DNA from: an uncultured Candidatus Saccharibacteria bacterium
GTDB lineage: Bacteria > Patescibacteriota > Minisyncoccia > Phycocordibacterales > UBA12079
Direction of reading: 5' to 3'
NCBI GenBank assembly: GCA_964459145.1
Contig: CAYWKC010000004.1
Coordinates: 1 to 36,787, forward strand
DNA: 36,787 nucleotides
The position numbers were made by a program, and so were the translations under genes. Below, piece after piece: positions 2,960-33,881 of this stretch. The notes below the pieces were generated by a model. That model did not search any database. It was not told where the DNA came from and saw nothing but the letters and a program-made list of their open reading frames with translations. Within the stretch, counting starts at the first letter, position 1. Each line of letters starts with the position of its first letter.

Positions 2960-3057
2960 ACCCTGTTAAATAAACAAAACAATTTATCAAAAAATATTTA
3001 AAACTTATCATGGAAAAACATTTATTAGAAAAAGAATCAAATCATATTTAACAGGGT
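2960..3057. mobile_element. 98-bp MITE-like element, copy 1
   Basis: Perfect 13-bp terminal inverted repeats ACCCTGTTAAATA / TATTTAACAGGGT; 97/98 identical to 5574-5671. Confidence 0.7.
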
Positions 3058-3059
3058 AA

Positions 3060-4139
3060 ATGGAAAATTTAAAAAAAATTAGAATAGCAATAAATGGATT
3101 TGGGCGGATTGGACGTGTTTTTTTTAGATTAGTTTTTGCAAATTCTGACCTTCAAGTTGTGGCTATCAATGATTTGGCTGATGAAGATAATCTCAAATAT
3201 CTTTTGAAATATGATACTTCTTATGCAAAATGTTCTTTAGACTGTGAAAAAGCTATTCAAGAAGTTCAATTTCTTAGTGAACCAGACCCTCAATATTTGC
3301 CGTGGAAAGATTTAACCATTGATGTTGTTGTAGAAGCTACGGGGGTTTTTAATACTTACCAAAAAGCTAATGCGCATCTTGAAGCTGGAGCAAAAAGAGT
3401 AATTTTAACAGCGCCAGTTAAAGAAAATTCACAAGAAAATCTGGGGAGGTCAGACCTCTCCAAATCTGGGGAGGTCCGATCTCCCGAGATGCCTGATTAT
3501 AATGTATTGGGAAAAACTATTTTGATGGGAATTAACGATGATGAATTAAAAAACTGTCAAATTAGTGCGAATGGTTCTTGTACGACCAATGCGGTTAGCC
3601 CTGTTTTACAAATTCTTGATAGAACTATCGGTGTTAATAAGGCTATTTTAAATACTATCCATTCCTATACTTCTACCCAAAAATTAGTTGACTCACCCAA
3701 CAAAAAAGATTATCGTCGAGGACGAGCGGGAGCGCAAAACATTATTCCCACCAGCACAGGAGCGGCGGTGGCTACAACTTTAGTTATTAAAAGGTTGGCA
3801 GGGAAGTTTGATGGATTAGCTTTAAGAGTTCCAACAGTGTTGGGTTCTTTGGTTGATTTAACTTTTGTTGCAAAAAGAGAAACTAGTTGTGAAGAAATCA
3901 ATTCAATTTTAAAACAAGCCAGTCAAGAAAAAAGATGGCAAGATATTTTTACCACAACCGAAGATTCAATTGTTTCTTCAGATACCATTGGAAACCCCTA
4001 TGCTTCTATCGCGGATTTATCTTTAACTAAAGTTATTGGCGGAGATTTGGTAAAAGTTTTAATATGGTATGATAACGAAATGGGTTATGCTAAAACCCTC
4101 ATTAAACATATTTTGGCTACAAGGGATTATCCCTGTTAA
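3060..4139 (+). CDS. gap: Glyceraldehyde-3-phosphate dehydrogenase (type I)
   Basis: INGFGRIGR NAD-binding motif, GSCTTN catalytic Cys, WYDNEMGY. Confidence 0.97.
   Translation: MENLKKIRIAINGFGRIGRVFFRLVFANSDLQVVAINDLADEDNLKYLLKYDTSYAKCSLDCEKAIQEVQFLSEPDPQYLPWKDLTIDVVVEATGVFNTYQKANAHLEAGAKRVILTAPVKENSQENLGRSDLSKSGEVRSPEMPDYNVLGKTILMGINDDELKNCQISANGSCTTNAVSPVLQILDRTIGVNKAILNTIHSYTSTQKLVDSPNKKDYRRGRAGAQNIIPTSTGAAVATTLVIKRLAGKFDGLALRVPTVLGSLVDLTFVAKRETSCEEINSILKQASQEKRWQDIFTTTEDSIVSSDTIGNPYASIADLSLTKVIGGDLVKVLIWYDNEMGYAKTLIKHILATRDYPC
3437..3490. repeat. Tandem dimer of the GGGAGGTCnGACCTCCC palindrome within gap
   Basis: AAATCTGGGGAGGTC starts at 3437 and at 3462, each followed by a complementary arm. 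Confidence 0.85.
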
Positions 4140-4267
4140 ATGTTTTCAAATTTAGTATAATTTAATTATTAATTAATCTTTAAATTTATTTTGTGTAGCT
4201 GTATAAAATTGTGGAAAAAAATAAATTTGAAATTAAAATTTGTTGCAACAAATTTTATTTAACAGGG
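4131..4267. mobile_element. TIR-bounded element (subtype B) between gap and rpiB
   Basis: CCCTGTTAAAT ... ATTTAACAGGG ends; internal perfect 24-bp palindrome 4234-4257; right ~50 bp resembles the right end of 33751-33881. Confidence 0.65.
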
Positions 4268-4273
4268 TAAATT

Positions 4274-4735
4274 ATGAAAATACTTATTGCTTCTGACCAT
4301 GCTGGGTTTGAATTAAAAAAAGAACTTATTTTATCTTTAACTGAATTGGGCCATGAGGTTGAGGATAAGGGACCTTTTCAATATGTTTCAGATGATGATT
4401 ATCCAGATTTTGTTCTTCCAGTTGCGGAAGAGGTTTCAAAAAATGAAAATATAAAAGCTATTATTCTCGGTGGTTCTGGACAAGGAGAAGCCATTGTAGC
4501 TAATCGTTTTAAAAATGTGAGAGCAGTGGTTTATTATGCTGATAATCCTGATGTTATTAAATTGACGCGTGAACACAATGATTCTAATGTGCTCTCTTTA
4601 GGAGCGAGATTTCTTTCTGTAGAAGAAGCTAAAGAAGCAGTTCAGCTTTGGTTGGAAACGAAATTTTCTGGTGAATCTCGTCATTCGCGTCGTCTCCAAA
4701 AGATAAATTTACTTAGTAACCGGGTTACTAAGTAA
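4274..4735 (+). CDS. rpiB: Ribose-5-phosphate isomerase B
   Basis: IASDHAGFELK, DDDYPDF, GGSGQGE, REHNDSNVLSLGARF, RHSRR. Confidence 0.95.
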   Translation: MKILIASDHAGFELKKELILSLTELGHEVEDKGPFQYVSDDDYPDFVLPVAEEVSKNENIKAIILGGSGQGEAIVANRFKNVRAVVYYADNPDVIKLTREHNDSNVLSLGARFLSVEEAKEAVQLWLETKFSGESRHSRRLQKINLLSNRVTK

Positions 4736-4826
4736 AATGGGGATAAGTCCAAAATAACCAATGTTTACAACATGATAACCACCTAGTTATTTAGTAACCT
4801 TACTTAGTAACCGGGTTACTAAGTAA
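4708..4826. repeat. Two full copies plus a half copy of the palindrome TTACTTAGTAACC-G-GGTTACTAAGTAA
   Basis: 4708-4736 (14-bp arms), 4800-4826 (13-bp arms), half site 4787-4799. Confidence 0.9.
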
Positions 4827-4834
4827 AAAAATAT

Positions 4835-5587
4835 ATGAAAAAAGAGAATTATGTTGCTTCCTCGGCGACCCATCGAAGAGGTGGAGAAAATATAGAAATA
4901 ATACCCGCTATTTTACCCAAAGATTTTGATGAATTGGAACGAAAATTGGCTCTTTTAAAAGATGTTTCTGTAATTTTAGGTGAACAAAAAAAAATGGTTG
5001 TGCAAATGGACATTTGTGATGGTTTATTTGTTGAAACTAAAACTTGGCCATATTGGGAAGGGGATGTTTTGGAAAAGTTAGCCCCTTTTCGTGATGTTTT
5101 TGACTTTGAAATAGATTTATTTGTTCAAAATCCTAAGAGTGCGATTTCAAATTGGCAAGAAATTGGGGCGAAAAGAATTATTTTACATATTGAAAGTTTA
5201 ATTGACCAGTCCCTAAGCGAACTGTTTATAGAATTAGATGTTCAAGCCACTCAATTTGGTTTTTCACTCAATTTGGAGACAGCCACAAAAGGATTAGACC
5301 AATATGTAAGAGATGCAGACTTTTTCCAGTTTATGGGAATCAATAAAATTGGTCATCAGGGAGAAAAATTTAATAAAGGTGTTTTGAAAAAGATAAAAAT
5401 TTTTCGTCAAAATAATCCGGATGTTATAATTTCTGTGGATGGAGGAGTTAATTTGAAAAACAGTCAAGACTTGGTGAAAATGGGTGCTAATCGTCTAGTG
5501 GTTGGTTCAGTTATTTTTGGGAAACATAATGCTGAAGAAATAGTTCAAATAATTAAAAAGTTTAGAAAAATTCACCCTGTTAAATAA
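4835..5587 (+). CDS. rpe: Ribulose-phosphate 3-epimerase
   Basis: IIPAIL, QMDICDGLFV, ISVDGGVN, GANRLVVGSVIF; adjacent to rpiB and transketolase. Confidence 0.88.
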   Translation: MKKENYVASSATHRRGGENIEIIPAILPKDFDELERKLALLKDVSVILGEQKKMVVQMDICDGLFVETKTWPYWEGDVLEKLAPFRDVFDFEIDLFVQNPKSAISNWQEIGAKRIILHIESLIDQSLSELFIELDVQATQFGFSLNLETATKGLDQYVRDADFFQFMGINKIGHQGEKFNKGVLKKIKIFRQNNPDVIISVDGGVNLKNSQDLVKMGANRLVVGSVIFGKHNAEEIVQIIKKFRKIHPVK

Positions 5588-5671
5588 ACAAAACAATTTA
5601 TCAAAAAATATTTAAAACTTATCATGGAAAAACATTTATTAGAAAAAGAATCAAATCATATTTAACAAGGT
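5574..5671. mobile_element. 98-bp MITE-like element, copy 2
   Basis: Identical to 2960-3057 except one G>A in the right TIR; AATT one base outside each end. Confidence 0.7.
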
Positions 5672-5676
5672 AAATT

Positions 5677-6573
5677 ATGGCGATTGACAACAAAAAAATA
5701 ATTAAAGATTTGGAAAAGATAGCGACAACTGTGCGTCAAGAAATAATTGAGATGTTAAGGCAAGCTGGTTCGGGACATACGGCTGGTTCCTTGAGTATGA
5801 CAGAGATTTTTGTAGCGATGTATTTTAATATTTTGAGACATGACCCCCGCAATCCAGATTGGGGAGGAAGAGACCGTTTAATTCTTTCTCATGGACATAC
5901 TTGCCCAGCTTTATATGCGGTGATGGCTGAAGCTGGTTATTTTCCAAAAGATGAATTACAAACATTGCGAAAATTCGGGTCTTCATTACAGGGACATCCA
6001 CACAAGGAATGGTTAAAAGGAATTGAGACGAGTTCTGGTCCTTTAGGATCGGGGCTTTCACAAGCGGTTGGAATGGTTTTGGCAGATAGAATCGATCATT
6101 TTTCTGACTTGGAAGATTTGGACGTCGGGTGTTTAAGTGGTAAGGAAAGAAAATTTTTTTATTGTTTAATGTCTGATGGAGAGATGCAGTGTGGCCAAAC
6201 TTGGGAAGCCCTGATGTTGGCAGGAAAAGAAAAACTTTCTAATTTGATTGCAATTATTGATAGAAACAATATTCAAATCAGTGGAGAAACAGAAAAAGTT
6301 ATGCCTTTAGAACCCTTGCGTGATAAATTAGAGGCTTTTAATTGGCAAGTTTTAGAAATTGACGGGCATAATTTTGAACAGATAATAGGGGCGGTAGCAA
6401 CAGCTAAGAGAACAACAGGATTGCCCTTTGAAGAAAATCGTCCCACAATTATTATTGCTCATACAATTCCGGGAAAGGGTTTTCCAGAATTTGAAAACGA
6501 TTATCATTGGCATGGCAAAGTTCCTGACAAGATTTCTGTTTCTGTAAAATTCACAGAATCCCAACCCTCTTAA
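5677..6573 (+). CDS. Transketolase N-terminal (TPP-binding) subunit
   Basis: GSGHTAGSLS, RDRLILSHGH, LQGHP, SGPLGSGLS, SDGE...DRNN TPP motif, WHGK. Confidence 0.93.
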   Translation: MAIDNKKIIKDLEKIATTVRQEIIEMLRQAGSGHTAGSLSMTEIFVAMYFNILRHDPRNPDWGGRDRLILSHGHTCPALYAVMAEAGYFPKDELQTLRKFGSSLQGHPHKEWLKGIETSSGPLGSGLSQAVGMVLADRIDHFSDLEDLDVGCLSGKERKFFYCLMSDGEMQCGQTWEALMLAGKEKLSNLIAIIDRNNIQISGETEKVMPLEPLRDKLEAFNWQVLEIDGHNFEQIIGAVATAKRTTGLPFEENRPTIIIAHTIPGKGFPEFENDYHWHGKVPDKISVSVKFTESQPS

Positions 6574-6598
6574 TTTCGGGAGGTCCGACCTCTCGAGA
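6574..6598. repeat. GGGAGGTCnGACCTC palindrome directly after the transketolase stop
   Basis: TCGGGAGGTC-C-GACCTCTCGA (6576-6596). Confidence 0.85.
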
Positions 6599-6614
6599 AA
6601 TATATTAAAGGAAT

Positions 6615-7691
6615 ATGAAATTTAAAAAAGGGGAACAAAAAAAAGTTTTCGTAGGTGCTTCGGGTGGAGTAGATTCTTCTACTGCGATGGCTTTATTAAA
6701 AAAACAAGGTTATGCCGTGACAGGTGTTTTCATCAAAGTTTGGCAACCTGATTTTGTAGAATGTCGGTGGAAAGAAGACCGTTTAGATGCGATGCGAGTT
6801 TGCGCATCTTTAGGCGTTGATTTTTTAGATTTGGATTTGGAAAAAGAATATAAGCGAGACGTTTTTGATTATATGGTGGATGAGTATAAAAATGGGAGAA
6901 CTCCTAATCCTGATGTGATGTGCAATAAAAAAATTAAATTCGGGGCTTTTTTAGATTTTGCAAAAAAGACAGGGGCAGATTATATCGCGACTGGTCATTA
7001 TGTTAGGTTACAAGCTGGACAGCTTTTAGCTGGAGTTGATAAAAACAAAGACCAATCATATTTTTTATGGACGCTAACACAAGCACAGCTTAAACATTGT
7101 CTTTTCCCAATTGGTGATTATGAAAAAACGGAAGTTAGACAATTAGCTAAAAAATTTAATCTTCCCACAGCTCAAAAAAAAGATAGCCAAGGTTTGTGTT
7201 TTGTGGGAAAAGTTGATATGAAAGAATTTTTAGAGAGATTTATTCCGCAAAAAAAGGGAGATGTTTTGAACGAAAAAGGAGAAGTAATTGGTCAACACGA
7301 TGGGGTTTTCTTCTACACCATTGGACAAAGACACGGTTTTGAAATTATAAAAAAAGGAACAAATGACAAACCTTATTACATTACTGCAAAAGATTTAGAT
7401 GAAAATACTTTAACGGTTTCAAACAACAAAAAATTTCGGGAGGTTCGACTCCCCGAGATTTTTAGGGGGGTTGAAATTGAGGAAGTAAATTGGATTTTGG
7501 GGAAAAGTCCAAATTTAGATAAGAAGTATCAGGCCAGGATAAGATATAGACAAGTTTTGCAAGATTGTGGTCTGATGGAAAAAAATAATGAAATCTTAAT
7601 TAAGTTTGAAGAAAATCAAAATGTAGCTAAAGGTCAGTCCCTTGTAATCTATGATGGAGAAATTTGTTTGGGAGGAGGAATAATTAGCTAA
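6615..7691 (+). CDS. mnmA: tRNA-specific 2-thiouridylase
   Basis: SGGVDSS, GRTPNPDVMCN, ATGHY, KDQSYFL, DSQGLCF, TIGQRHG, CLGGGII. Confidence 0.97.
   Translation: MKFKKGEQKKVFVGASGGVDSSTAMALLKKQGYAVTGVFIKVWQPDFVECRWKEDRLDAMRVCASLGVDFLDLDLEKEYKRDVFDYMVDEYKNGRTPNPDVMCNKKIKFGAFLDFAKKTGADYIATGHYVRLQAGQLLAGVDKNKDQSYFLWTLTQAQLKHCLFPIGDYEKTEVRQLAKKFNLPTAQKKDSQGLCFVGKVDMKEFLERFIPQKKGDVLNEKGEVIGQHDGVFFYTIGQRHGFEIIKKGTNDKPYYITAKDLDENTLTVSNNKKFREVRLPEIFRGVEIEEVNWILGKSPNLDKKYQARIRYRQVLQDCGLMEKNNEILIKFEENQNVAKGQSLVIYDGEICLGGGIIS
7429..7463. repeat. GGGAGGT-family palindrome within mnmA
   Basis: AAAAATTTCGGGAGGT-TCG-ACTCCCCGAGATTTTT, encodes KFREVRLPEIF. Confidence 0.8.
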
Positions 7692-7732
7692 AGAATTTAA
7701 TCAATAAATGATTACAAGTTTTTAATTACATT

Positions 7733-7741
7733 TGATATAAT
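7733..7741 (+). promoter_or_regulatory. Extended -10 promoter (TGaTATAAT) 6 nt before the ATG
   Basis: TATAAT 7736-7741 preceded by TGn; ATG at 7748. Confidence 0.6.
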
Positions 7742-7747
7742 AAAGAG

Positions 7748-8611
7748 ATGATGACAGAAGAAGACAAACCAATTTATATAATTAAAGCAAGCGGAGAAAA
7801 AGAACCTTTTGAAAATGAAAAACTCAGAAATTCTTTAAGAAAAGCCGGGGCAAGCTCTCAGGTAATTGAAGAAATTGTTGGAGTAATTAGGAAAAAATTA
7901 ATTGATGGGATGACTACTACTGAGATTTATAAAGAGGCCCTTAAGTTGTTAAGAGAGATTGAGGAAGAAATTGTTCCTATCAAATATTCGGTTAGAAGAG
8001 CTGTTATGCAGTTAGGTCCAGACGGTTTTTCTTTTGAGGATTTTATCGGAGCAATGTTTCGGGCTGTTGGTTATAAAGTGCAATTAAGACAGACAATTAG
8101 AGGATTATGTGTGGCTCATGAAATTGATCTTATTGCTCAAAACGATGAGGAAATTTTAATTGGTGAAATAAAATTTCACAATAAACAAGGAATGAAATCA
8201 GATATAAAAATTGTTTTATATGTGAAAGAAAGATTTGACGATTTAATGAAAGGTGAATTTTGGAAAAATATAAAAAAAGATTTAAGGAAAGAACTTTTGT
8301 TAATAACTAACACTAAGTTTACTAGTAAAGCAATTCAGTATGCAGAATGTTATCCTGGGTTGCAATTAATGAGTTGGAATTATCCAGAAGGAGGAAGTCT
8401 ACATAAGTTTATAGAAGAGGCTAAATTATATCCACTAACTTGTTTGGAATCATTAAGTAGTTATGAAAAAAAATTATTTTTGAAAAACAAAATTGTTTTA
8501 TGTCGGGAATTAAAACAAGGAGGAGAGAGGTTATTTAATTTGGTGGGAATTTCTCCAGAAAAAAGGGTAGTAGTTTTAAGAGAAGTAGAACATTTATTAA
8601 CTAAAAAATAA
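7748..8611 (+). CDS. ATP-cone domain protein with restriction-endonuclease-like PD-(D/E)xK domain
   Basis: N-terminal IIKASGEKEPFENEKLRNSL (ATP cone); FEDFIGAMF...GY...HEIDLIA...IGEIKFH...LITNTKFTSKA (Mrr-like fold). Confidence 0.75.
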   Translation: MMTEEDKPIYIIKASGEKEPFENEKLRNSLRKAGASSQVIEEIVGVIRKKLIDGMTTTEIYKEALKLLREIEEEIVPIKYSVRRAVMQLGPDGFSFEDFIGAMFRAVGYKVQLRQTIRGLCVAHEIDLIAQNDEEILIGEIKFHNKQGMKSDIKIVLYVKERFDDLMKGEFWKNIKKDLRKELLLITNTKFTSKAIQYAECYPGLQLMSWNYPEGGSLHKFIEEAKLYPLTCLESLSSYEKKLFLKNKIVLCRELKQGGERLFNLVGISPEKRVVVLREVEHLLTKK

Positions 8612-8619
8612 TCATTAGG

Positions 8620-9171: not shown

Positions 9172-9190
9172 GGGGTCGGCTGAAAAAATT

Positions 9191-10306: not shown

Positions 10307-10361
10307 TTTTGAGAAGATAAAATCATCAAAGAGAAGGTTAATGTTTATTAGGACAGTTGTT

Positions 10362-10390: not shown

Positions 10391-10397
10391 TAGAGTA

Positions 10398-13533: not shown

Positions 13534-13781
13534 TAGTAGATTTTTGTTTATGTTTTAGTATTTTTATCTTACCTTGGTGGATTTCTCTTTTATTTATGTG
13601 TGGGGCTTTTTTTATTTTTGAATCATTTTATGAAGGTTTGTTTTTAGGTTTAACGGCTGATTTACTCTTTTTTACTTCTCACGAATTATTCTATAATTTA
13701 CCTATTATTTTTTTCTTATCTTTGTTTGCTTTTTTACTAATATCTTTTTTGAAAAAACAATTAAGATTAAATCATCAATAA
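13509..13781 (+). CDS. Small three-TM membrane protein at the mreD position
   Basis: Highly hydrophobic, GLFLGLTADL resembles the MreD GlxxD motif; overlaps mreC and mrdA. Confidence 0.6.
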   Translation: MGSNFSRIIVDFCLCFSIFILPWWISLLFMCGAFFIFESFYEGLFLGLTADLLFFTSHELFYNLPIIFFLSLFAFLLISFLKKQLRLNHQ

Positions 13782-15487
13782 TGTTTTTAAGAAAAAAAAA
13801 ATTATTCCATAGGTTTAAAAGAACTGGAAGAGAAATTACCCCAGATGATATTTTTATTGATTCAAAAAATTTGCCGAGATTTGATGAGGACCAGTTTGAA
13901 GGGAGAATAGAAAAATCTATTTCAAAAAAGATTATTATTTTTGTTGGTTGTTTCTTTATGTTGGTAACTACTGTTTATCTTTTAAAAATAGGAGATTTAC
14001 AGTTGAAAAATGGTAATAAATTTTTGGCAAGAAGCGAAAATAATCATCTTCAACACTCAATTATTTTTGCAGAACGAGGAATCATTTACGACAGGAACAA
14101 TCAAGAGCTTGTTTATAATTCTTCAGAGAAAGAGACTGATCAAGAATTTTTTAAGAGAGAATATTTTGATTATAAGGGGTTGGCCCATATTTTAGGTTAT
14201 GTAAGTTATCCATTAAAGGATAAAAATGGTAATTATTATCAAGATGAGTATCTCGGAAAAAGTGGTATGGAAGAATTTTTCAATGATAAATTAAGCGGTG
14301 AGAACGGTTTAAAAATCATTGAAAAAGATGCTCTCTTTGAGACAAAATCAGAGTCAATTATTCAGCCCCCCCAAAAAGGCGAGAGTGTTTTTCTTTCTAT
14401 TGATATTAGAGTTCAAGAAACACTTTATAAGTTTATCTCTGGATTAGCCAAACAAATTGGTTCTAAAGGTGGGGCAGGGGTGATAATGGATGTGAACAAT
14501 GGTGAAGTTTTGGCCTTAGTCAGTTATCCAGAATATGACCTTGAAATTATGTCTAATAGTAAGGACGAAAATGAAGTCAAAAAATATACAATGGCGAAAG
14601 ATAATCCTTTCCTAAATAGAGTAACTATGGGTCTTTATACCCCAGGGTCTATTGTTAAGCCGTTTTTAGCTATAGCTGCTTTGAATGAAGGTATTATTAG
14701 TCCTAATAAAAAAATATTAAGTACGGGTTCTATTTCTATTCCTAACCCATATTTCCCCAATGAAAGTTCTATTTTTAACGACTGGAAAGCTCACGGTTGG
14801 GTAGATATGAAAGAAGCATTGGCTGTTTCCTCTAATGTCTATTTTTATGCAATTGGAGGTGGATACGAGGGTCAAATTGGTTTAGGTATTGATAAAATTA
14901 ATGAATATATCAAACTTTTTGGTTTTAGCGAAGAAGCGGGGATTGAGGGTTTTTTAGAAGAAAGAGGAATTATTCCTAATCCCGAGTGGAAAAAAAAGAT
15001 GTTTAATGGAGAGGAATGGATGTTGGGAGATACTTACCACACTTCTATTGGGCAATATGGTTTTCAAGTAACCCCTTTACAGATAGTAAGAGCTATAGGT
15101 TCAATTGCTAACAGCGGAAAACTTTTTCGTCCAACTATTGTAAAAAAAGAAAATAATGAAAAAAATTATGAAATTATACCAATTGATGAACAATATTTTC
15201 AAATTGTGCGAGAAGGGATGCGACAAGCGGTGACTGTTGGAACAGGCAAGGGATTAAATTTACCTTTTTTAGATATTTCGGTCAAAACTGGTACTGCTGA
15301 AAGGGGGACTATAAAGGAAAAAGTTAATTCTTGGGTGACGGGTTTTTTTCCGTCTATCAATCCGAGGTTTGCTTTTGCTGTGATGATGGAAGAGGGTCCT
15401 AGTGATAATCAAATTGGGGGTCTTTATGTTATGCGACAATTATTAGAGTGGATGCATCTAAACACCCCTGAATATTTATCATCTTAA
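13781..15487 (+). CDS. mrdA: Penicillin-binding protein 2 (class B)
   Basis: RGIIYDRN, SIVK (SxxK), SSN (SxN), KTG. Confidence 0.93.
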   Translation: MFLRKKKLFHRFKRTGREITPDDIFIDSKNLPRFDEDQFEGRIEKSISKKIIIFVGCFFMLVTTVYLLKIGDLQLKNGNKFLARSENNHLQHSIIFAERGIIYDRNNQELVYNSSEKETDQEFFKREYFDYKGLAHILGYVSYPLKDKNGNYYQDEYLGKSGMEEFFNDKLSGENGLKIIEKDALFETKSESIIQPPQKGESVFLSIDIRVQETLYKFISGLAKQIGSKGGAGVIMDVNNGEVLALVSYPEYDLEIMSNSKDENEVKKYTMAKDNPFLNRVTMGLYTPGSIVKPFLAIAALNEGIISPNKKILSTGSISIPNPYFPNESSIFNDWKAHGWVDMKEALAVSSNVYFYAIGGGYEGQIGLGIDKINEYIKLFGFSEEAGIEGFLEERGIIPNPEWKKKMFNGEEWMLGDTYHTSIGQYGFQVTPLQIVRAIGSIANSGKLFRPTIVKKENNEKNYEIIPIDEQYFQIVREGMRQAVTVGTGKGLNLPFLDISVKTGTAERGTIKEKVNSWVTGFFPSINPRFAFAVMMEEGPSDNQIGGLYVMRQLLEWMHLNTPEYLSS

Positions 15488-16126: not shown

Positions 16127-17584
16127 ATGGCATCTTTAGAAGAAATTAGAAAAATAAGACTGGAAAAAAAGAAAAAATTAGAAAACAAAGGCATTAATCC
16201 TTATCCAGCCAAAATCGTTTTTGATGCGACCTTAAAAGAAGTTATTGATAGTTTTAAAGAAGGAAAAAAAATTAGAGTGGTAGGGAGAATAATGTCTCTT
16301 CGTTCACAGGGAGTTTTGATTTTTTTTGATTTATTTGATGGCACAGGAAGTTTCCAAGGACTTCTCAAAAAAGATGAAATTAGTGAGGAAAAATTCAATC
16401 TTTTTGTAGAAACAATTGATATTGGTGATTTTGTTTTGATTGAGGGGAAACTTTTTATAACTGAAAGAGGTCAGCAAACAATAGCTGTTTCTGATTGGAA
16501 GATTGTTGCTAAAAGTTTAAGACCTTTACCAGAGAAGTGGCATGGTTTAAAGGATTCAGAAGAAAGATATAGAAAAAGATATTTAGATTTATTGATGAAT
16601 CCTGAGATTAAAAATCTTTTTATCAAAAAAACAGAATTTTGGAATGTTGCGAGAGAGTTTTTTAAGGCAAAAGGTTTCCTTGAAGTAGAAACACCTATGT
16701 TAGAAATAACTACAGGGGGAGCAGAGGCCCGACCTTTTATTACCCATCATAATGATTTTGATATTGATTTATATTTGAGAATTTCTGTTGGCGAATTATG
16801 GCATAAACGACTGTTAGTGTCTGGTTTTACAAAAACATTTGAAATTGGCAAAATTTTTCGCAATGAGGGAACTAGTGCAGAACATTTACAGGAATTTACT
16901 AATTTAGAGTTTTACTGGGCTTATGCTGATTACAAAGATGGGATGGAATTGGCACAAGAATTATATCGGAAAATAGCTAAAGATGTTTTTGGAACAACCA
17001 AGTTTGAATTGAAACAATATAAATTTGATTTAGCAGATGAATGGATTGAAATTGATTATCAGAGTGAAGTATTAAAACAAACAGGTATTGATGTTTTGAC
17101 TACCAATGAAGAAAAAATGAAAAGCAAGTTAGATGAACTTAAAATAAAGTATGAAGGAGAAAATAGAGAACGTTTGATGGATACTTTATGGAAATATTGT
17201 CGAGAAAAAATTGCTGGCCCAGCTTTTCTTATTAATCATCCTAAGTTAGTAGCTCCTTTAGCCAAAGTTAAAAATGATAATCAGGAGTTGACAGAAAGAT
17301 TTCAAATTATTTTAGCTGGTTCAGAAATAGGCAATGGTTTCTCGGAATTGAACGACCCGCTTGACCAAAAAGAAAGGTTTGAAATACAACAAGCTCTTTT
17401 GAAAAAAGGTGACCTTGAAGCCATGATGCCCGATTGGGAATTTGTAGAAACTTTAGAATACGGTATGCCACCAGCTTGTGGTTTTGGTTTTGGTGAAAGA
17501 TTATTCTGGGTTTTAGCGGGTGTCTCTGCTCGAGAAGGAACTCTCTTCCCCCTAATGCGTTCAAGAGAAGTAGGAAAAGACTAA
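16127..17584 (+). CDS. lysS: Lysine--tRNA ligase (class II)
   Basis: LPEKWHGL, RYRKRYLDL, GGAEARPF, FRNEG, SELNDP, YGMPP. Confidence 0.97.
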   Translation: MASLEEIRKIRLEKKKKLENKGINPYPAKIVFDATLKEVIDSFKEGKKIRVVGRIMSLRSQGVLIFFDLFDGTGSFQGLLKKDEISEEKFNLFVETIDIGDFVLIEGKLFITERGQQTIAVSDWKIVAKSLRPLPEKWHGLKDSEERYRKRYLDLLMNPEIKNLFIKKTEFWNVAREFFKAKGFLEVETPMLEITTGGAEARPFITHHNDFDIDLYLRISVGELWHKRLLVSGFTKTFEIGKIFRNEGTSAEHLQEFTNLEFYWAYADYKDGMELAQELYRKIAKDVFGTTKFELKQYKFDLADEWIEIDYQSEVLKQTGIDVLTTNEEKMKSKLDELKIKYEGENRERLMDTLWKYCREKIAGPAFLINHPKLVAPLAKVKNDNQELTERFQIILAGSEIGNGFSELNDPLDQKERFEIQQALLKKGDLEAMMPDWEFVETLEYGMPPACGFGFGERLFWVLAGVSAREGTLFPLMRSREVGKD

Positions 17585-27075: not shown

Positions 27076-27081
27076 AAAACT

Positions 27082-28368
27082 ATGCCTAAAAAAACCAAGA
27101 AAGAAATAAAAAAGAAATCCTCTAAAAAAATGGTGGTAAAGAAAGGGGTAAAAAAGAAAGAAAGAGATAAAATAACGACGAAGAAAGTCAAAAAAATAAC
27201 CCCGAAGAAGAAAGGGGAAAAGAAATCTATTTTTTCCGAAAAGAAAAAAATTATTGTTAAGAAAAACAAGGAAAAAATAAAACCCAATAAACACTCGGAG
27301 GAAAATAAAAAAAAGATAGAAAGTTTGGTAAAGAGAGGAAAAGAAATGGGATTTGTGACTTTTGATAATATCTTAAAGGAATTTCCTTATGTGGAGAATG
27401 ATTTGTTTTTGTTGGAAGAGGTCTATGAAAATTTTGATAAAATGGGGATTGATGTTCTAGAAAATAAAGAGATTTTAGACTCAAATGCTGAAATGTCATT
27501 GAAGAAGGTGGGAAAATATGACCGAGCTTCACAAGATTCTATTCAAATGTATTTGAAGGAAATTGGAAGATATGAATTATTAACCCAAGCTCAAGAAAAA
27601 TCCTTAGCGCAAAGAATTGAGAAGGGAGATGAAGAAGCCAAAAACTTATTAGCCAGAGCCAACTTAAGATTGGTGGTTTCTATTGCTAAAAAATACATGG
27701 GGAGAAGTTCGGATTTAACTTTGTTAGATTTAATTCAAGAGGGGAGTTTGGGTTTATTTAAAGCGGTTGAAAAATTTGATTGGACAAAAGGATTCAAGTT
27801 TTCTACTTATGCAACTTGGTGGATTAGGCAAGCTATAACACGAGCTTTAGCTGACCAATCTAGAACGATTAGAATTCCTGTGCATATGGTGGAAACCATT
27901 GCTAAATACAAACAAACAGTTAGAAGATTATCTCAGGAGTTGGGGAGGAAACCTCTTCCAGAAGAAATTGCGGTAGAAATGGATTTAACAGTTGATAAGG
28001 TTCATAATATTTTAAGGATAGATAGAAAAATTGTTTCTTTAGAAAATCCAATTGGAGGAGAAGATGGCGACGGGAAGTCAACTTTGGAAGATTTTACTCC
28101 CGATGACAAAATTGATTCTCCAGAACAAAAGGTCTCACAAAGAATTTTAGCCGATCAAGTTAGAGATGTTCTAAATGATTTGACTTTCAAAGAAAAAAAG
28201 ATTTTGGAAATGAGGAATGGAATTGGAGACGGAGTTTATCGGACTTTGGAGGAAGTGGGGAAGGAATTTGGAGTAACCCGAGAACGAATTCGTCAAATTG
28301 AAGCCAAAGCTCACGAAAAAATTAGGCAAAATGAGAAAATAAATCGTCTCAGAGACCTTGATTTTTAA
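27082..28368 (+). CDS. rpoD: Primary sigma factor RpoD/SigA with Lys-rich N-terminal tail
   Basis: [52 protein letters not shown]; follows dnaG. Confidence 0.96.
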
Positions 28369-28371
28369 AAT

Positions 28372-28398
28372 ATCGGAAGAGGTCTGACCTTCTCAGAT
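28372..28398. repeat. Degenerate GAGGTCnGACCT-family palindrome just after the rpoD stop
   Basis: ATCGGAAGAGGTC-T-GACCTTCTCAGAT. Confidence 0.7.
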
Positions 28399-28483
28399 TT
28401 AGTTTTTCAAGATTTTTTAGATATAAATTTTTAAAGTTTTGAGATAAAAATCGAACACCCAATAAATAGGGCTGGTTTAGGGC

Positions 28484-28798
28484 CTAGACAAGAGTATAAT
28501 GGACATTATGACCGGAGGGGGAGGATTGGAGGATTTTGCCTGCTTGTTCTAATTGGTTGAGATAACGGAGAGCAGTGGTGCCAGAGACATTTAAGAGTTT
28601 TTCGACATCCTCACGAGTGATGCCAGTTGGTTTGTCTGCTAAATTACAATTCTGGAGAGCTTGTTGGTGGGCGGTTTCTCTCTGGAGAAATTCTAAAATT
28701 TGTTGTTTGCGTTCCTCGGTTCTTTCAGTGAGGACTTCTTGAGCTTCCTCTTGCAAGTTGTCTAATTCGGCTTTGGGTAAATCAGCAGAGGGGGTGTC
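28484..28798 (-). pseudogene. 5'-truncated winged-HTH (DeoR-like) gene fragment, or a short gene from TTG 28756
   Basis: ITREDVEKLLNVSGTTALRYLNQLEQAGKI wHTH; frame stays open with no ATG up to a TGA at 28799-28801. Confidence 0.55.
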
Positions 28799-28799
28799 T

Positions 28800-28846
28800 C
28801 AATTGGTTGACAATTGGTTGACAATTAAAAAGCATTTGTTTACAAT
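28800..28846 (+). promoter_or_regulatory. Near-consensus sigma70 promoter overlapped by an 11-bp tandem repeat
   Basis: TTGACA (28818-28823)-17 bp-TACAAT (28841-28846); CAATTGGTTGA x2 + CAATT at 28800-28826. Confidence 0.7.
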
Positions 28847-28857
28847 ATAGTTTATAT

Positions 28858-29895
28858 ATGTTGACCAAAGAAAAAATTCTTCAGGAAGTTTATAATAAAG
28901 GCATTATAAAAACTTCTGATTTTATAGAGAGTTTTGGTGTGTCTCGGCAATATGTCTCAAAATTACTCTCCGGATTAGTCGATAAAAATCTCTTAATTAA
29001 GGTTGGTTCAACTCGGTCGGCTTTTTATACAACTGAAGAATTTTTGCAGAAGAATCCAAAATTTGCTCCAAATTCATATTCTAAAACTTTAAATAACAAA
29101 AACTTAGAAGAACACAAAATATTGAATGACATACAAAGGTCTTTTTTGCCAATATCGTCAATTTCTGAAAATGTAAAAAGTATTTTTGAGTATGCCTTTT
29201 CGGAAATGTTAAATAATGCGATAGAACATTCTACTTCAAAAAAAATTAAAATATTTGTTAGTTTGCAAAAAGAGGTGCTTTCTTTTGTGGTTGATGATTT
29301 TGGAATTGGGGTATTCAGAAATATAATGAAAAAGAAAAATCTGAATTCTGAAATAGAAGCGATTCAGGATCTCTTGAAAGGAAAAACAACGACGGCTCCT
29401 AAGCTTCATTCCGGAGAAGGAATCTTTTTTACCTCAAAAGTTGGAGATGAATTTGTGCTTGATAGTTATGGACATCAATTTATTGCGGATAATATTATAA
29501 AAGATATTTTTGTAAAAAAAGTTAAAGGTCAAAAGCAAGGGACAAAAGTTACTTTTAAAATCAATCTAAATGATAAACATCATTTGAATGACATTTTTAA
29601 AAAATATACGAATATTGGGGAAAATAGCGATTATGGTTTTGACAAAACCGAAATAAGAGTTAGGTTGTATCTGTTAGGGGGGGTTCATATATCAAGGTCT
29701 CAAGCTCGTCGTGTTTTATCTGGTTTGGAGAAATTTAAAGTGATTGTTATGGACTATGATAAAGTTCCAACAGTTGGGCAGGCTTTTGCTGATGAAATTT
29801 ATCGTGTATTTAAAAATAAAAAACCTGAGATTGAAATTCAAAATATCAATATGAACGAGACAGTCCAATTTATGGTTGAAAGAGCAAAAAATTAG
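28858..29895 (+). CDS. wHTH + HATPase_c (GHKL) + STAS-like (DUF4325-type) protein
   Basis: GVSRQYVSKLL HTH; EMLNNAIEHS, DFGIG, HSGEGIFFT, GTKV; SRSQARR...VGQAFADEIYRV. Confidence 0.8.
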   Translation: MLTKEKILQEVYNKGIIKTSDFIESFGVSRQYVSKLLSGLVDKNLLIKVGSTRSAFYTTEEFLQKNPKFAPNSYSKTLNNKNLEEHKILNDIQRSFLPISSISENVKSIFEYAFSEMLNNAIEHSTSKKIKIFVSLQKEVLSFVVDDFGIGVFRNIMKKKNLNSEIEAIQDLLKGKTTTAPKLHSGEGIFFTSKVGDEFVLDSYGHQFIADNIIKDIFVKKVKGQKQGTKVTFKINLNDKHHLNDIFKKYTNIGENSDYGFDKTEIRVRLYLLGGVHISRSQARRVLSGLEKFKVIVMDYDKVPTVGQAFADEIYRVFKNKKPEIEIQNINMNETVQFMVERAKN

Positions 29896-29916
29896 GTAAA
29901 AATTTAGGGTTGTATA

Positions 29917-32900
29917 ATGGAAAGCAAGATGTCTACAAAAAAATTTGAAACTGAATATAAAAGGTTAAATCCTCATCAAAAACAGGCAGTAGATGCGGTG
30001 GAGGGGACAGTGATGGTGGTAGCGGGGCCGGGAACTGGCAAAACTCAAATTTTAAGTTTGCGAATTGCGAATATCTTGAAACAAACTGACACCAACCCAG
30101 AAAATATTCTGGCATTAACTTTTACGAATGCGGGGGTATTTGCTATGCGGAAAAGATTGATTGAAATTATTGGAGCAGAGGCCTACCGAGTGAATATTTT
30201 TACTTTTCATAGTTTTTGTGAAGCTTTGGTTAATGAGTTTGGTGAAGAGTATCAAAAAATTGCGGGGGCGAAACTTATTTCACCAGTGGAACAATTACAG
30301 ATAATTGAGGAGATTATTAAGGAAAGTGAGTTTGATAAGTTACGACCTTGGGGGAAGACTTCTACTTATGTAAATAGTTTGCCAACAGTAATAAATAAAT
30401 TAAAACGAGAAAATATCTCGGTAGAAAAATTAAAACAGATTTTATCTGAACAAGAAAAAAATTTTTCTCAGATTGAGGACTTGTATCATACCAAAGGGAA
30501 GTGGGGGGGTCAGATGAAAGGTAAATATAAACAAGAGGAAAAAAATTTGGAGAAGAATAAAGAGGTGGTAATTTTTTATGAAGAATACGAACAGTGGTTG
30601 AGGAAGAAGCAGTTATATGATTTTGATGATGTAATTTTAGAGACAATTCGGGCGATGGAAAATAACCCAGATTTTTTATTAGCATTACAGGAAAAGTATC
30701 AATATATTTTAGTAGACGAGCATCAGGACACTAATGATTCACAGAATAAGATTTTGGAATTGTTGACGAATTTTTTTGAACGACCGAATTTATTTATTGT
30801 GGGAGACGAAAAACAAGCGATTTATCGTTTTCAAGGAGCTTCTTTGGAAAATTTTATGTTTTTTAAAGATAAATATAAGGATGTTTTAATGGTTGGTTTA
30901 GAAGAAAATTATAGGTCTACTCAGAAAATTTTGGATGGGGCTTTGAGTTTGATGAAAAATAATCAGGCATCCGATGCCTCTAAGAACACTTCTCAAGGAG
31001 TTACCCCCCAAGAATCGGGGCGGTTTGGAGGGGTTCCCGAGCTGAAAGCTATGGTAGGCGGGTCAGGAGTAGAAATTTCAGTTTATCCTTTTTCTGAAGA
31101 GGAATTTGAAAAAAGGTTTTTAGCAGAGGATATTCAAAAGAAAATAAAGGCAGGTGTTCCTCTTAATGAAATTGCTATTTTTTATCGTAATAATAGTGAA
31201 GTGCTTGATATTATGAAAGCTTTAGAAAAAGTACAGGTGCCGTTTGTGGTTGAGTCCAAACAAAATATTTTAACGGATGCAGATATTTTAAAAATAATTT
31301 TGATACTTAAAACTGTAAATCGTCTAGGCGATAACATTTGGTTGGGGAAAATGTTGTTTATTGATTTTTTGAAAATTGATAGTTTGGATATTTATAAGTT
31401 GATGTCTTTTAGTCAGAAACAAAAAGTTGGTTTATTTGATTGTCTGATTTCTGAAAAATTTCTCAAAGAAGCTGGTGTCAGTGAGATTAAAAAGTTGGCG
31501 AATTTATATAAAAAAATTGAGGGTTGGAAAAAGACCGCAATGAATAAAGATTTGACGACTTGTTTAGAAGAGATTGTTTACCAGTCAGGTTATTTTGATT
31601 ATTTGTTAAAAGCCGAGGATTCAGCCGAAAGATTACAGAAACTTAATAAGTTTTTTGATGAAGCCAAACAATTTATTCAGGGGAAACAAGGAGCAAGATT
31701 GGCTGACTTTGTAAAATATTTGGAGTTGTTGGAAAATTATCAAGTTCCTCTTAAAACCAAGAGTAATGACCTGTTTAATGGGGTCAGATTGATGACAGCT
31801 CATGGGGCGAAAGGTTTAGAATTTGATGTGGTTTATCTTGTTAATGTGGTGGATAAACATTGGGGGAATAAGATTTCAAAACAGCCATTTAAATTGCCTA
31901 TCCACGGGATTGAGCAAGGAAATGCTGATGAACGGAGGTTGTTTTTTGTGGCGTTGACGAGGGCAAGAAAAGAAGTTATTATGACTTACGCTAAAAAGAA
32001 AATTGATGGGCGGGATCAATTGCCTACACAATTTTTGGCAGAAATTGATGAAAAGTTTCTAAAAGAAAAAGATGTTAAAAAGATAGAACTTGATTTTCTT
32101 AAAAATACTCAGTTGTTAGCGTCAGAGGTAAACAGAGTTAAAATCAATCTTAAAAATAAGGAATATTTGAATCGGTTATTTTTGCAGAGAGGGCTGAATG
32201 CAACCGCAGTGAATAATTATCTGCAATGTCCGTGGTTATATTTTTTCAAAAGTTTGCTAAAAATTCCCACGGCCTATAATAAAAATATGGCTTACGGGAA
32301 TGTGATGCACAAGACTTTAGAAGAATTTTTTGAGAAGGTTCGGCGAGAGCAAAAAACGAGTAAGAAATTATTGGTGGACATTTTTAGAAAAAATGCCGAA
32401 AAAGGTTTTTTGAATGACAGTGATAAACAAGAGGCCTTAGGAAAAGGTGAACGAGCTTTAGCGGGTTGCTATGAGACTTATCATCAAGAATGGAAAAAAG
32501 AAATTTTGAATGAGTTTAATATTAAAGGAATTTTGTTTGAAATTGAAGAGGGTCGAGAAGTCTTTTTGTCTGGTAAATTGGACAAGGTTGAATTATTGGA
32601 AGCTGGGCAAGTCAAAGTGATTGACTATAAAACAGGAAAAGTTAAAAGTCGGGGAGTGATTGAAGGCACTACGAAAGATTCTAACGGAAATTATAAACGG
32701 CAGTTAGTTTTCTATAAATTGCTTTTAGATAGATACAACGAGGAACAATATCAGATGGTAGTGGGAGAAATTGATTTTATTGAACCGAATGAAAGAGGTA
32801 AGTATAAAAAGGAATTATTTGAGATTAGTCGAGAGGAGGTGCAGGCTTTGGAAGAAGTGATTAAAAAGATTTCCAAAGAGATTTTGGAGTTATCGTTTTG

Positions 32901-32961
32901 GGATAAAAAGTGTAATGATAAAAATTGTGAATTTTGCCGGTTGCGAGAGGTGCTGGGGTAA
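29917..32961 (+). CDS. UvrD/PcrA-family SF1 helicase fused to a C-terminal PD-(D/E)xK nuclease
   Basis: AGPGTGKT, LTFTN, VDEHQD, VGDEKQAIYRFQGA, NYRS, TAHGAKGLEF, ERRLFFVALTRA; GKLDKV...IDYKTG. Confidence 0.92.
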   Translation: MESKMSTKKFETEYKRLNPHQKQAVDAVEGTVMVVAGPGTGKTQILSLRIANILKQTDTNPENILALTFTNAGVFAMRKRLIEIIGAEAYRVNIFTFHSFCEALVNEFGEEYQKIAGAKLISPVEQLQIIEEIIKESEFDKLRPWGKTSTYVNSLPTVINKLKRENISVEKLKQILSEQEKNFSQIEDLYHTKGKWGGQMKGKYKQEEKNLEKNKEVVIFYEEYEQWLRKKQLYDFDDVILETIRAMENNPDFLLALQEKYQYILVDEHQDTNDSQNKILELLTNFFERPNLFIVGDEKQAIYRFQGASLENFMFFKDKYKDVLMVGLEENYRSTQKILDGALSLMKNNQASDASKNTSQGVTPQESGRFGGVPELKAMVGGSGVEISVYPFSEEEFEKRFLAEDIQKKIKAGVPLNEIAIFYRNNSEVLDIMKALEKVQVPFVVESKQNILTDADILKIILILKTVNRLGDNIWLGKMLFIDFLKIDSLDIYKLMSFSQKQKVGLFDCLISEKFLKEAGVSEIKKLANLYKKIEGWKKTAMNKDLTTCLEEIVYQSGYFDYLLKAEDSAERLQKLNKFFDEAKQFIQGKQGARLADFVKYLELLENYQVPLKTKSNDLFNGVRLMTAHGAKGLEFDVVYLVNVVDKHWGNKISKQPFKLPIHGIEQGNADERRLFFVALTRARKEVIMTYAKKKIDGRDQLPTQFLAEIDEKFLKEKDVKKIELDFLKNTQLLASEVNRVKINLKNKEYLNRLFLQRGLNATAVNNYLQCPWLYFFKSLLKIPTAYNKNMAYGNVMHKTLEEFFEKVRREQKTSKKLLVDIFRKNAEKGFLNDSDKQEALGKGERALAGCYETYHQEWKKEILNEFNIKGILFEIEEGREVFLSGKLDKVELLEAGQVKVIDYKTGKVKSRGVIEGTTKDSNGNYKRQLVFYKLLLDRYNEEQYQMVVGEIDFIEPNERGKYKKELFEISREEVQALEEVIKKISKEILELSFWDKKCNDKNCEFCRLREVLG

Positions 32962-32970
32962 ATTAGGGTA

Positions 32971-33009
32971 AAAAAAGCCAAAACTCAAAATGTTTCTTTT
33001 GGGTTTTTT
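32971..33009. terminator. Possible bidirectional terminator between convergent genes
   Basis: AAAAAAGCCAAAA ... TTTTGGGTTTTTT, one mismatch, weak stem. Confidence 0.3.
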
Positions 33010-33745
33010 ATTGACCTTGAAGGATGAGATCAATAATAGATTTAACGACGTTGTAAGGTTGAGCGCCATCAATGGGGTAGGTTTTGCCTAATCTGGTTAA
33101 AATAATTGTGTGGGGAGTTCCTCCGGTTGTGCCTGATATTCCTAAAACACCTGCCTCAATTCCACTTTGGTATTCTTGTTTAACTAAATCTAAGATAGAA
33201 TCGTCTTCCAAACAATTTAAAAAATCCTCCTTTTTTAATTTGATGGACACGGCTAATTCTATCAGTTGTTCAGTTACAAATTCTTTTTTCTCACTAAATT
33301 GAGTTTGAAAAATTTTGTCCGACATTTCCCAAAATTTAGCATTCCCCCCTAATTGACCAGCACAGCGAGTAGCAATAGCTTTTTTTTCAGCAGTGGCTCC
33401 ATAAATAGGAAATTGTCTAAAAATCCAAGCTACTTTTCCGTCTTTTCCATAGTTGTCTATTATTTGATGCATGGTTTGGTGAAATATTTTACAAAATGAG
33501 CATTCAAAATCACTGAAATTAATGAAAATTAAATCAGCTTCAGGACTACCCAAAAGATAATCTGTGTTTCTAACACTGACAGATTCAGAAGAAGTTGGAG
33601 AAATTTGCTTGGTGTTGGGGGCAATCTCTTTGTTTTCTATTTTTAATTCACTTTTTTTGTTAGTTGCCATTATTCCCCAAGCGATTAAACCTCCTGCAAT
33701 TAGAATGGCAATGGGTATTAAAAGTTTGTTAGATTGTTCTGGCAT
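33008..33745 (-). CDS. Membrane-anchored DsbA/thioredoxin-fold oxidoreductase
   Basis: N-terminal TM; FSDFECSFC (CxxC), RQFP, GTP, GAQPY. Confidence 0.9.
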   Translation of the reverse strand: MPEQSNKLLIPIAILIAGGLIAWGIMATNKKSELKIENKEIAPNTKQISPTSSESVSVRNTDYLLGSPEADLIFINFSDFECSFCKIFHQTMHQIIDNYGKDGKVAWIFRQFPIYGATAEKKAIATRCAGQLGGNAKFWEMSDKIFQTQFSEKKEFVTEQLIELAVSIKLKKEDFLNCLEDDSILDLVKQEYQSGIEAGVLGISGTTGGTPHTIILTRLGKTYPIDGAQPYNVVKSIIDLILQGQ

Positions 33746-33750
33746 AATTC

Positions 33751-33881
33751 ACCTTGTTAAATATCTTTAAATTCTTTATGATTTATTGATAATTTTTTAT
33801 AAAAGTAACAGAGATATTATATACAAAAATGACGGAAATTTAAAGTTAAAATTTGTTGGAACAAATTTTATTTAACAAGGT
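33751..33881. mobile_element. 131-bp TIR-bounded element (subtype B)
   Basis: Perfect 13-bp TIR ACCTTGTTAAATA / TATTTAACAAGGT; internal 24-bp near-palindrome 33847-33870; AATT one base outside both ends. Confidence 0.7.

Follow-up and report, generated by a model that had tools for sequence, protein, structure and literature searches.

Junctions of the window and their mini-elements

The stretch analysed here (the window) comprises 36,787 nt and is contig C4 (CAYWKC010000004.1, assembly GCA_964459145.1) of a genome of an uncultured Candidatus Saccharibacteria bacterium, called G000 below (578 kb in 23 contigs, ~33% G+C, 98% complete). It carries gap, rpiB, rpe and a gene for the N-terminal part of transketolase (tkt) in one operon and, further along, a DsbA-like gene next to an RNase H-like gene. 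The junctions of these genes, whose identities we verified with Pfam, hold four short elements with shared inverted ends (copies 1 to 4). We examined these elements and their relation to a family of very small elements that bear a GIY-YIG nuclease gene.

A search of the window for ACCYTGTTAAAT with at most one mismatch returned eight matches, which form exactly four inverted pairs: 2960-2971/3046-3057 (copy 1), 4130-4141/4257-4268 (copy 2), 5574-5585/5660-5671 (copy 3) and 33751-33762/33870-33881 (copy 4). Shuffled windows gave a mean of 1.19 and a maximum of 4 matches, and none of 100 shuffles attained eight. An earlier note on this DNA, made from the letters alone, had recognised the same four mini-elements; its coordinates for copy 2 (4131-4267) capture the element and need correction at the start, which is 4130.

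All four lie on the plus strand and fall into two kinds. Copies 1 (2957..3060) and 3 (5571..5674) are of one 98-bp type, with 98% identity over 107 nt (family D1). Copy 1 corresponds to the unit TTA-ACCC...GGGT-AAA, the final A of which is the A of the gap start codon, and combines a left end with the last 23 codons of a GIY-YIG gene. Copies 2 (4127..4271) and 4 (33748..33884) are gene-less three-stem elements of common architecture; their right 52 nt are 92% alike (D5) and their central loops differ. The arms of stem 2 lie at 4142-4153 and 4223-4234 in copy 2 and at about 33763-33774 and 33836-33847 in copy 4, and stem 3 is a palindrome in both (22 bp at 4235-4256 in copy 2; 33848-33869 in copy 4). 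To speak of three different interiors, as was done before, is fair. The ends vary slightly: copy 2 departs from the motif by one base on the left (TCCCTG), the left and right ends of copy 3 are ACCCTG and CAAGGT, so that its arms have one mismatch, and copy 4 carries the matched variant ACCTTG/CAAGGT, in which the same change had already been seen at both ends.

The gap open reading frame (ORF) terminates at 4139 within TCCCTGTTAA of the left end of copy 2 (stop codon 4137-4139), and that of rpe at 5587 within ACCCTGTTAAATAA of the left end of copy 3 (stop codon 5585-5587). The left ends therefore supply these stop codons, as proposed from the sequence, and the presence of TAA in two of the three frames of the element end explains how they do so. 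The outer end of copy 1 lies 2 nt ahead of the gap start codon; the far ends of copies 2 and 3 lie 5 nt ahead of the ATG of rpiB and of the transketolase N-terminal gene, respectively; and the left end of copy 4 lies 5 nt from the start of the DsbA-like gene (33745, minus strand). These measurements agree with the 2-5 nt originally read. The right end of copy 4 is 3 nt from the stop codon of the RNase H-like gene.

Elements with the same ends carry a nuclease gene

Across G000, 20 exact and 21 one-mismatch matches to the end motif resolve into 16 end-bounded elements at 13 loci, so the further copies that the note wished to see exist. Two are full-length elements of 285-286 bp with the same ends, at C2:2150-2435 and C13:2648-2932, each with an intact gene (C2:2183-2434 and C13:2680-2931). 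This sole gene is an 84-aa ORF matching Pfam GIY-YIG (E 2.2e-15 and 1.7e-13); PF01541 spans residues 1-71 and there is no second domain, which makes the product a single-domain protein. Its last five codons and stop (YLTG-stop) are at the same time the right end of the element, and the complete form measures ~290 bp, from TTYACCCTGTTAAAT to ATTTAACAGGGTRAA. The closest solved structures are the stand-alone UPF0213 proteins 1ywl and 1zg2 (E 5e-4), and a search of NCBIfam with the 84-aa protein gave nothing over the cut-offs. A gene bounded by the same ends, which had been sought as a possible transposase or recombinase, is thus present on C2 and C13 as a GIY-YIG nuclease gene. The statement that no recombinase or transposase gene is present holds for the window; for the genome it fails, as there are two intact candidate partner genes.

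In tblastn searches with the 84-aa ORFs, the final 22-23 residues aligned with copies 1 and 3 at E 4e-7 to 1e-5, with a match in copy 1 at 2988-3056 (23 aa, 74-78% identical; E 1e-6 to 4e-7) and one in copy 3 at 5602-5667. Because of these matches we read both as a left end fused to the 3' end of the gene, and as a newer derivative of 98 bp. The loops of copies 2 and 4 showed no similarity to the 84-aa gene above that of shuffles (z about -1).

Three more distant GIY-YIG genes occur in G000, two of them with in-frame stops. Stand-alone genes at C14:12053-12283 and C21:7166-7378 encode products 34-41% identical to the 84-aa protein, the latter with one in-frame TAA. An ORF on the minus strand at C17:871-1083 has one in-frame TAG and lies within a stretch matching 23S rRNA (L003:1-1572). 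It probably encodes a nuclease from another subfamily, carried by an insertion in the rRNA gene.

The family is spread across phyla

At E <= 1e-5 the 84-aa protein finds at least 5160 database clusters, and the best 120 of these 5160 have lengths of 84-108 aa and share 75-100% identity with the query. In contigs representing one genome per species we confirmed 350 relatives and analysed the best 80 loci for ends. Their hosts include many classes of the candidate phyla radiation (CPR) as well as records labelled Bacteroidales, Desulfobacterales, Aminicenantes, Izemoplasmatales and more, with protein identities to the query of 69-90%. Allowing two mismatches, the left end was found in 76/80 of these loci, preceding the ATG by ~30 nt, and the right end, which falls within the last codons, in 74/80. 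Variants of the ends are matched between the two sides (..GTCAAAT/ATTTGAC.., ..GTGAAAT/ATTTCAC.. and ..TTAAGT/ACTTAA..). We conclude that the end-bounded nuclease gene belongs to a family that has spread across phyla.

Among 72 full-length relatives the conserved unit is TTY-ACCC...GGGT-RAA, and flanks farther out are not conserved. The TTY ahead of ACCC has T at 66/72 and 71/72, and the RAA past GGGT has A at 70/72 and 71/72. The AATT flanks of copies 2 and 4 had been taken for either a target duplication or an extension of the ends; the second option is borne out by the TTY and RAA of these relatives, and the first falls for want of a consistent direct repeat.

The scan of relatives for end pairs, also suggested beforehand, was positive: exact pairs occur in 5/41 related genomes, and a reversed control pattern in none. 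Homologues at least 85% identical were found only in G000 and two of its relatives, G001 and G002; a third, G003, lacks both homologues of this kind and end pairs. A 21-mer across the 3' end of the gene and the right end had no exact match in viral contigs.

The whole unit covaries as a three-way junction

We aligned 74 distinct full-length elements and read off 38 base pairs in three stems. Stem 1 joins the two ends (columns 1-15 with 287-301), stem 2 joins the 5' leader to codons 22-25 (columns 16-27 with 108-119) and stem 3 joins codons 25-28 to codons 77-80 (columns 120-130 with 276-286). Over the 74 elements, pairing holds in 94.5% of the cells; with the partners shifted by 1-3 columns it drops to 24-55%. 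Pairs altered on both sides number 14, compared with 9.6 +/- 1.7 in shuffles, and cells altered on both sides 111, compared with 27.8 +/- 4.1; none of 500 shuffles attained 111. Kinship can push such counts above shuffles without any structure, and the stems were derived from the very sequences on which they were tested; the shifted controls, together with numerous independent kinds of compensatory change, speak for a real covariation signal.

Part of this covariation runs through the protein code. In stem 2, 9/12 pairs covary although the 3' arm codes for K-N-L-K-L. In stem 3 the codon of residue 28 pairs with that of residue 78, and in an alignment of 17 proteins (16 of the subfamily) these residues are Asp-Val in 3, Glu-Leu in 12 and Glu-Ile in 1. 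Mismatches of the G-T type (28) and the A-C type (35) are equally rare, so both strands are under equal constraint, a symmetry that favours a DNA structure over an RNA. The covarying fold indicates that the whole ~290-bp unit, coding sequence included, is constrained to a single-stranded three-way junction.

The shorter elements fold in related ways. Among 37 gene-less or decayed elements of G000 and its relatives, the terminal stem closes at least two branches as single-stranded DNA (ssDNA) in 25 under a strict parse, and several of the remainder do so with a bulged terminal stem. Either strand of copies 2 and 4 folds into a three-way junction (z -4.55 and -5.05 for copy 2; z -4.2 for copy 4). 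Copy 1 retains only a terminal stem of 13 bp (z -2.2) and copy 3 likewise only the terminal stem (z +0.25). A search of the window and five loci at Rfam gathering thresholds found rRNA alone and no family at the elements.

Insertion polymorphism at orthologous junctions

Orthologous junctions were compared in related genomes (G001-G005), some of them of the same genus. The spacer between the upstream gene and gap measures 104 bp in G000, 19 bp in G002 and 3 bp in G003. Between gap and rpiB it measures 134 bp in G000, 246 bp in G001, which has a decayed GIY-YIG element there, and 11, 20 and 13 bp in G002, G003 and G004. At rpe/tkt, the 89 bp of G000 correspond to gene overlaps of 11 nt (G001), 14 nt (G002) and 11 nt (G003), to 22 bp with an end-like footprint in G004 and to 61 bp in G005. 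Compact, element-free junctions thus exist for copies 1-3 in some genomes of the same genus, and the site of copy 4 is clean in G001 only (CATAATTTAAATGCTAAAAAGG). An element of G001 resembling copy 4 (L031) was considered as its orthologue and rejected; it lies ~2.4 kb from the DsbA site. Where G000 has the full copy on C2, G001 likewise carries a full copy, G002 a derivative of 208 bp and G003 no element. We conclude that the elements are real insertions, present or absent at orthologous sites; the empty sites that the earlier note hoped for in relatives are there.

The boundaries were examined by removing elements in silico. Without Y-ACCC...GGGT-R, gap again ends in GAT TAA, the reading of G003, and rpe/tkt shows an 11-nt stop/start overlap, ATGGCGATTGA, similar to ATGGAGAATAA of G003 (G001 likewise overlaps by 11 nt). 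These restored junctions favour insertion into TT|AA without duplication, and insertion into a TT|AA context without target duplication is most likely. Boundary models with a 16-nt end, an AT duplication or an AATT duplication were each rejected, failing at one or more sites of the window.

Short remnants are present in relatives at some sites that are occupied in G000. G003 has, at C5 ~17247-17276 (L129), one ACCCTGTTAAAC between two direct copies of TTTATTTATATAGGGT, and the rpe/tkt junction of G004 (L029) reads ACCCTGTTAACCCTGTTAAAAAATTAGTATTTAACAGAAT. Both may be decay products or excision footprints.

A bias towards sites just ahead of start codons

None of the 16 elements of G000 lies inside an ORF, and in 8/16 an end is no more than 8 nt away from a start codon. 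Over the 74 full-length elements of the family, a co-directional host start codon follows the right end at 2-12 nt in 30, with peaks at 2 and 4 nt, and a divergent start stands at the left end in 1/74. The start-codon bias is real, and the positional preference for gene boundaries foreseen in the earlier note holds; it may arise either from target choice or from the survival of harmless co-transcribed insertions.

Do the ends also donate signals for translation or transcription? The 3' tail of the 16S rRNA reads GGAUUAUUUCAAAU, where the Rfam consensus has GGAUcACCUCCUUu at the same place. This tail lacks CCUCC, so there is nothing to pair with AGGGT or AAGGT, and donation of a Shine-Dalgarno sequence by the ends is rejected. 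The proposal that the elements donate translation signals is therefore upheld for the stop codons of gap and rpe and not for a ribosome-binding signal. Promoter consensus matches are weak; the best (10/12) lies in copy 4 and faces the DsbA-like gene, and matches of 9/12 are common in this AT-rich DNA.

Two observations concern the same regions. Both full-length elements of G000 stand 2 nt past a host TGTGTTATAAT, an extended -10-like box (L001 ~2136-2146 and L002 ~2491-2501), and the empty C2 site of G003 has the same box 8 nt ahead of the ATG; the element there sits, accordingly, between promoter and start codon. The 16S rRNA gene itself (L002, G000:C13, ~1300-2320) contains an insertion of ~890 bp near its 3' end that holds a 152-aa ORF (L002:1676-2134).

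Relation to known systems

The closest published system is Ssn. SsnA of Neisseria meningitidis is described as a 94-aa single-domain GIY-YIG nuclease whose binding to the NTS/SRM hairpin repeat is confined to ssDNA and which cleaves next to the repeat; copies of the repeat often flank its gene, an architecture that the authors call identical to that of an insertion sequence, and they liken the system to IS200/IS605 and to repetitive extragenic palindromes (REP), mobility being only hypothesised (main text of Chenal et al., Nat Commun 2025, PMC11893778). Both systems have a stand-alone GIY-YIG nuclease of ~85-95 aa; inverted repeats able to form structures lie on either side of its gene and also occur scattered elsewhere, chiefly in intergenic DNA. 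Here the nuclease is a single-domain protein of 84 aa, against about 90-100 aa expected of an Ssn-type protein, and the inverted repeats flank the gene (76/80 and 74/80 loci) and are dispersed (16 elements) in a form that differs from that of Neisseria. Going by the consensus printed for it, NTS has no match in G000 at <=4 mismatches, and dRS3 has no exact one. NTS/SRM is a self-contained hairpin of 20-50 nt, whereas the arms described here pair across the gene and with coding segments to give a three-way junction, and one end is the last codons of the nuclease gene. The copy number here is low (16), and insertion polymorphism, gene-less derivatives and start-codon bias are features of the present family. 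A term search of the main text and xlsx supplements of PMC11893778 gave no mention of Patescibacteria or CPR.

Other comparisons draw on general features of known elements. REP/REPIN-RAYT systems and IS200/IS605 elements also have a small gene between inverted structure-forming repeats with gene-less units dispersed intergenically, likely recognition of a single-strand hairpin and no target duplication. They differ in using an HUH/Y1 transposase and a simple hairpin, where the elements described here have a GIY-YIG hydrolase and a three-stem junction; Y1_Tnp (PF01797) had no match in G000, a 98% complete genome, in a search whose control found the domain in 6/14 well-known genomes. Miniature inverted-repeat transposable elements (MITEs) such as the Correia elements of Neisseria and RUP measure 60-290 bp, have terminal inverted repeats, are mostly non-coding, lie between genes and may affect the expression of neighbouring genes. 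Our mini-elements resemble MITEs in being short and non-coding, with terminal inverted repeats, several copies and ends in common with a gene-bearing element. In contrast to MITEs, the cognate gene-bearing element is itself only ~290 bp long and no target duplication was found, and the covarying inner stems indicate a structure-specific partner rather than a DDE transposase. Free-standing GIY-YIG homing genes (phage T4 Seg, I-TevI type) likewise place a selfish nuclease gene between host genes, but they have a separate DNA-binding domain, no inverted ends and no gene-less derivatives, and they home into allelic sites, whereas the sites here are unrelated gene junctions.

Full-text searches of the literature found no account of a GIY-YIG mini-element in bacteria. 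In the passages that bear on the subject, PMC7290515 deals with intron-borne GIY-YIG genes of a virus and PMC12455944 mentions a GIY-YIG protein only in a list of genes that Patescibacteria passed on to other hosts by transfer.

A probable mobile-element family and how it may move

We consider it likely that the four window elements are non-autonomous members of a very small mobile-element family with a GIY-YIG nuclease gene, a joint explanation for their ends, folds and positions. The non-autonomous mobile family at gene boundaries that the earlier note had proposed is supported by 16 elements at 13 loci, element-free sites in relatives and the start-codon bias. How would such elements move? 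The 84-aa nuclease would recognise the folded ends in ssDNA, cut at the element boundary and act in trans on gene-less copies too; this role is suggested by analogy with IS200/IS605, with REP-RAYT and with the Ssn nucleases, which recognise a hairpin repeat in ssDNA and make their cut next to it. On that analogy, nuclease-driven movement via a folded single-stranded form would be the most likely route, and the equal constraint on both strands is an indirect hint that the nuclease may cleave ssDNA only. Insertion would occur into very tight gene junctions, in a TT|AA context and without target duplication; the element would then fill the spacer, with the upstream gene stopping inside one end and the outer end 2-5 nt from the next start codon.

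Several observations weigh against this explanation. The descent of copies 2 and 4 from a gene-bearing copy would have to be read from their shared ends and stems. Copies 1 and 3 are without stems 2 and 3, yet this form occurs twice with 98% identity: either the ends are sufficient by themselves, or the two copies were made by conversion. G004 and another genome, G032, have end-bounded mini-elements while their GIY-YIG genes are only 41-54% identical. The site of copy 4 is occupied in G003 by a remnant of ~50 bp with one end motif and in G002 by 81 bp without ends, and such old remnants make long residence or host use possible. No direct repeat of 2-4 nt recurs in more than 36% of 72 elements, which gives no sign of a target-site duplication, and no single boundary model suits every site. 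The stretch is present in ten lake-water metagenome runs, with no RNA data set among the ones listed, and contigs of four of these runs were compared. The repeats interrupt the contigs (at about 2989/3024 and 5603/5636); a single contig covers 3024-5603 and includes copy 2. No contig joint in the four runs skips an element or represents an empty allele or a transposition intermediate, contigs being prone to drop rare variants. GIY-YIG nucleases hydrolyse DNA and are not known to join it, which leaves the transposition chemistry incomplete.

We put forward more tentatively, as a possibility that we rate somewhat below an even chance, that the ~290-bp unit is an autonomous transposon, among the smallest known, whose nuclease cuts its own three-way junction and moves itself and the gene-less copies into TTAA-like sites ahead of start codons, the host doing the joining. 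If so, the protein code and the cis-acting structure of a mobile element would share the same bases, in a unit spread across phyla. Should the nuclease move these units at all, they would form a new, extremely small class of mobile element, built on a nuclease type not known as a transposase. The Ssn family might then have a selfish origin, which is only hypothesised in the main text of the Ssn paper (PMC11893778). The covarying paired codons also give a clear instance of protein sequence moulded by a DNA structure, Asp going with Val and Glu with Leu. Within ultra-small genomes the elements change where genes end: stop codons are split, and C-termini are lengthened or cut short. They also occupy the translation initiation region of the core metabolic genes gap, rpiB, rpe and tkt, which bears on gene calling and on how the expression of operons is pictured in CPR bacteria. 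As laboratory tools, ssDNA nucleases specific for structure and sequence are of interest too.

Alternative explanations

One alternative is an Ssn-type system that serves the host, in place of a selfish transposon. The nuclease and the dispersed structures could mark or restrict ssDNA, for instance transforming DNA as proposed for Neisseria, with repeats that spread by recombination and are kept for their function. The closest published family acts in this way in N. meningitidis, according to the main text of PMC11893778; some insertions are old and have been kept, and the nuclease ORFs have stayed intact with high conservation (75-100% identity in the best 120 of 5160 clusters). We nevertheless think it unlikely that the elements are of this kind, since G000 holds only 16 of them against the hundreds of NTS copies described for Neisseria, with no NTS match at <=4 mismatches and no exact dRS3 match. 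Moreover, the distribution is patchy even inside one genus, protein identities of 69-90% across phyla fit horizontal spread better than host function, and decayed and truncated copies are common. If the ends acted instead as RNA, folding in the polycistronic mRNA beside the start codon, control of processing or translation would be the selected trait and mobility secondary. Elements 2-8 nt ahead of start codons within operons would indeed be co-transcribed, their fold is strongly conserved, and copy 4 has the 10/12 promoter-like match towards the DsbA-like gene. Against such a device, which we hold to be quite improbable, stand the missing Rfam match, the same junctions working without an element in relatives, a tolerance of G-U no greater than that of A-C (28 vs 35), unlike most RNA structures, and gene-less copies in both orientations to the downstream gene (copy 2 vs copy 4); promoter-like matches of 9/12 are, moreover, frequent in such AT-rich sequence.

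The earlier note had compared the ends with Xer/dif and integron sites, and GTTAAAT and ATTTAAC do occur within them. Cassettes moved by site-specific recombination between Xer/dif- or attC-like sites would call for a tyrosine recombinase, and the genome has two such genes (PF00589, C14:15567-16073 and C18:13600-14079); neither has an end motif within 10 kb, whereas the gene bounded by the ends in 74-76/80 loci across phyla is a GIY-YIG nuclease, and directional cassette arrays are missing. The two core motifs of the ends stand in the reverse of the attC order. The analogy therefore finds no support, and we regard recombination cassettes as extremely improbable. The same slight probability attaches to ordinary paired operators for a transcription factor flanking promoters. 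Palindromic 12-mers close to gene starts would suit that idea, but one arm is conserved C-terminal coding sequence of the nuclease gene across phyla, the sites are missing from orthologous junctions in relatives, and the inner stems covary together with the ends.

Other repeats and genes in the same region

Three kinds of mini-element occupy the one pentose-phosphate operon. The spacer between rpiB and rpe, which measures 7-27 bp in relatives, is 99 bp long in the window, where two copies of a palindrome of 28-29 bp with the core CTTAGTAACCGGGTTACTAAG fill it, at 4708-4735 and 4800-4827. The first copy supplies the last codons and the stop of rpiB, and nine copies occur genome-wide at <=2 mismatches. 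A GC-rich palindrome of 17-20 bp (GGGAGGTCNGAYCTCCC type) forms a tandem pair in frame in the gap coding sequence (3444-3460 and 3469-3485) and has a third copy in the window at 6578-6594, in the spacer past the transketolase N-terminal gene; eight copies are found genome-wide at <=2 mismatches.

The transketolase gene (5677-6573) encodes only the N-terminal, thiamine diphosphate half (298 aa), and the next gene (6615-7691) is MnmA-like by Pfam rather than the C-terminal half. On another contig, two of the REP-like 28-29 bp palindromes (G000:C18:13275-13325) lie ~280 bp from the tyrosine recombinase gene at 13600-14079.

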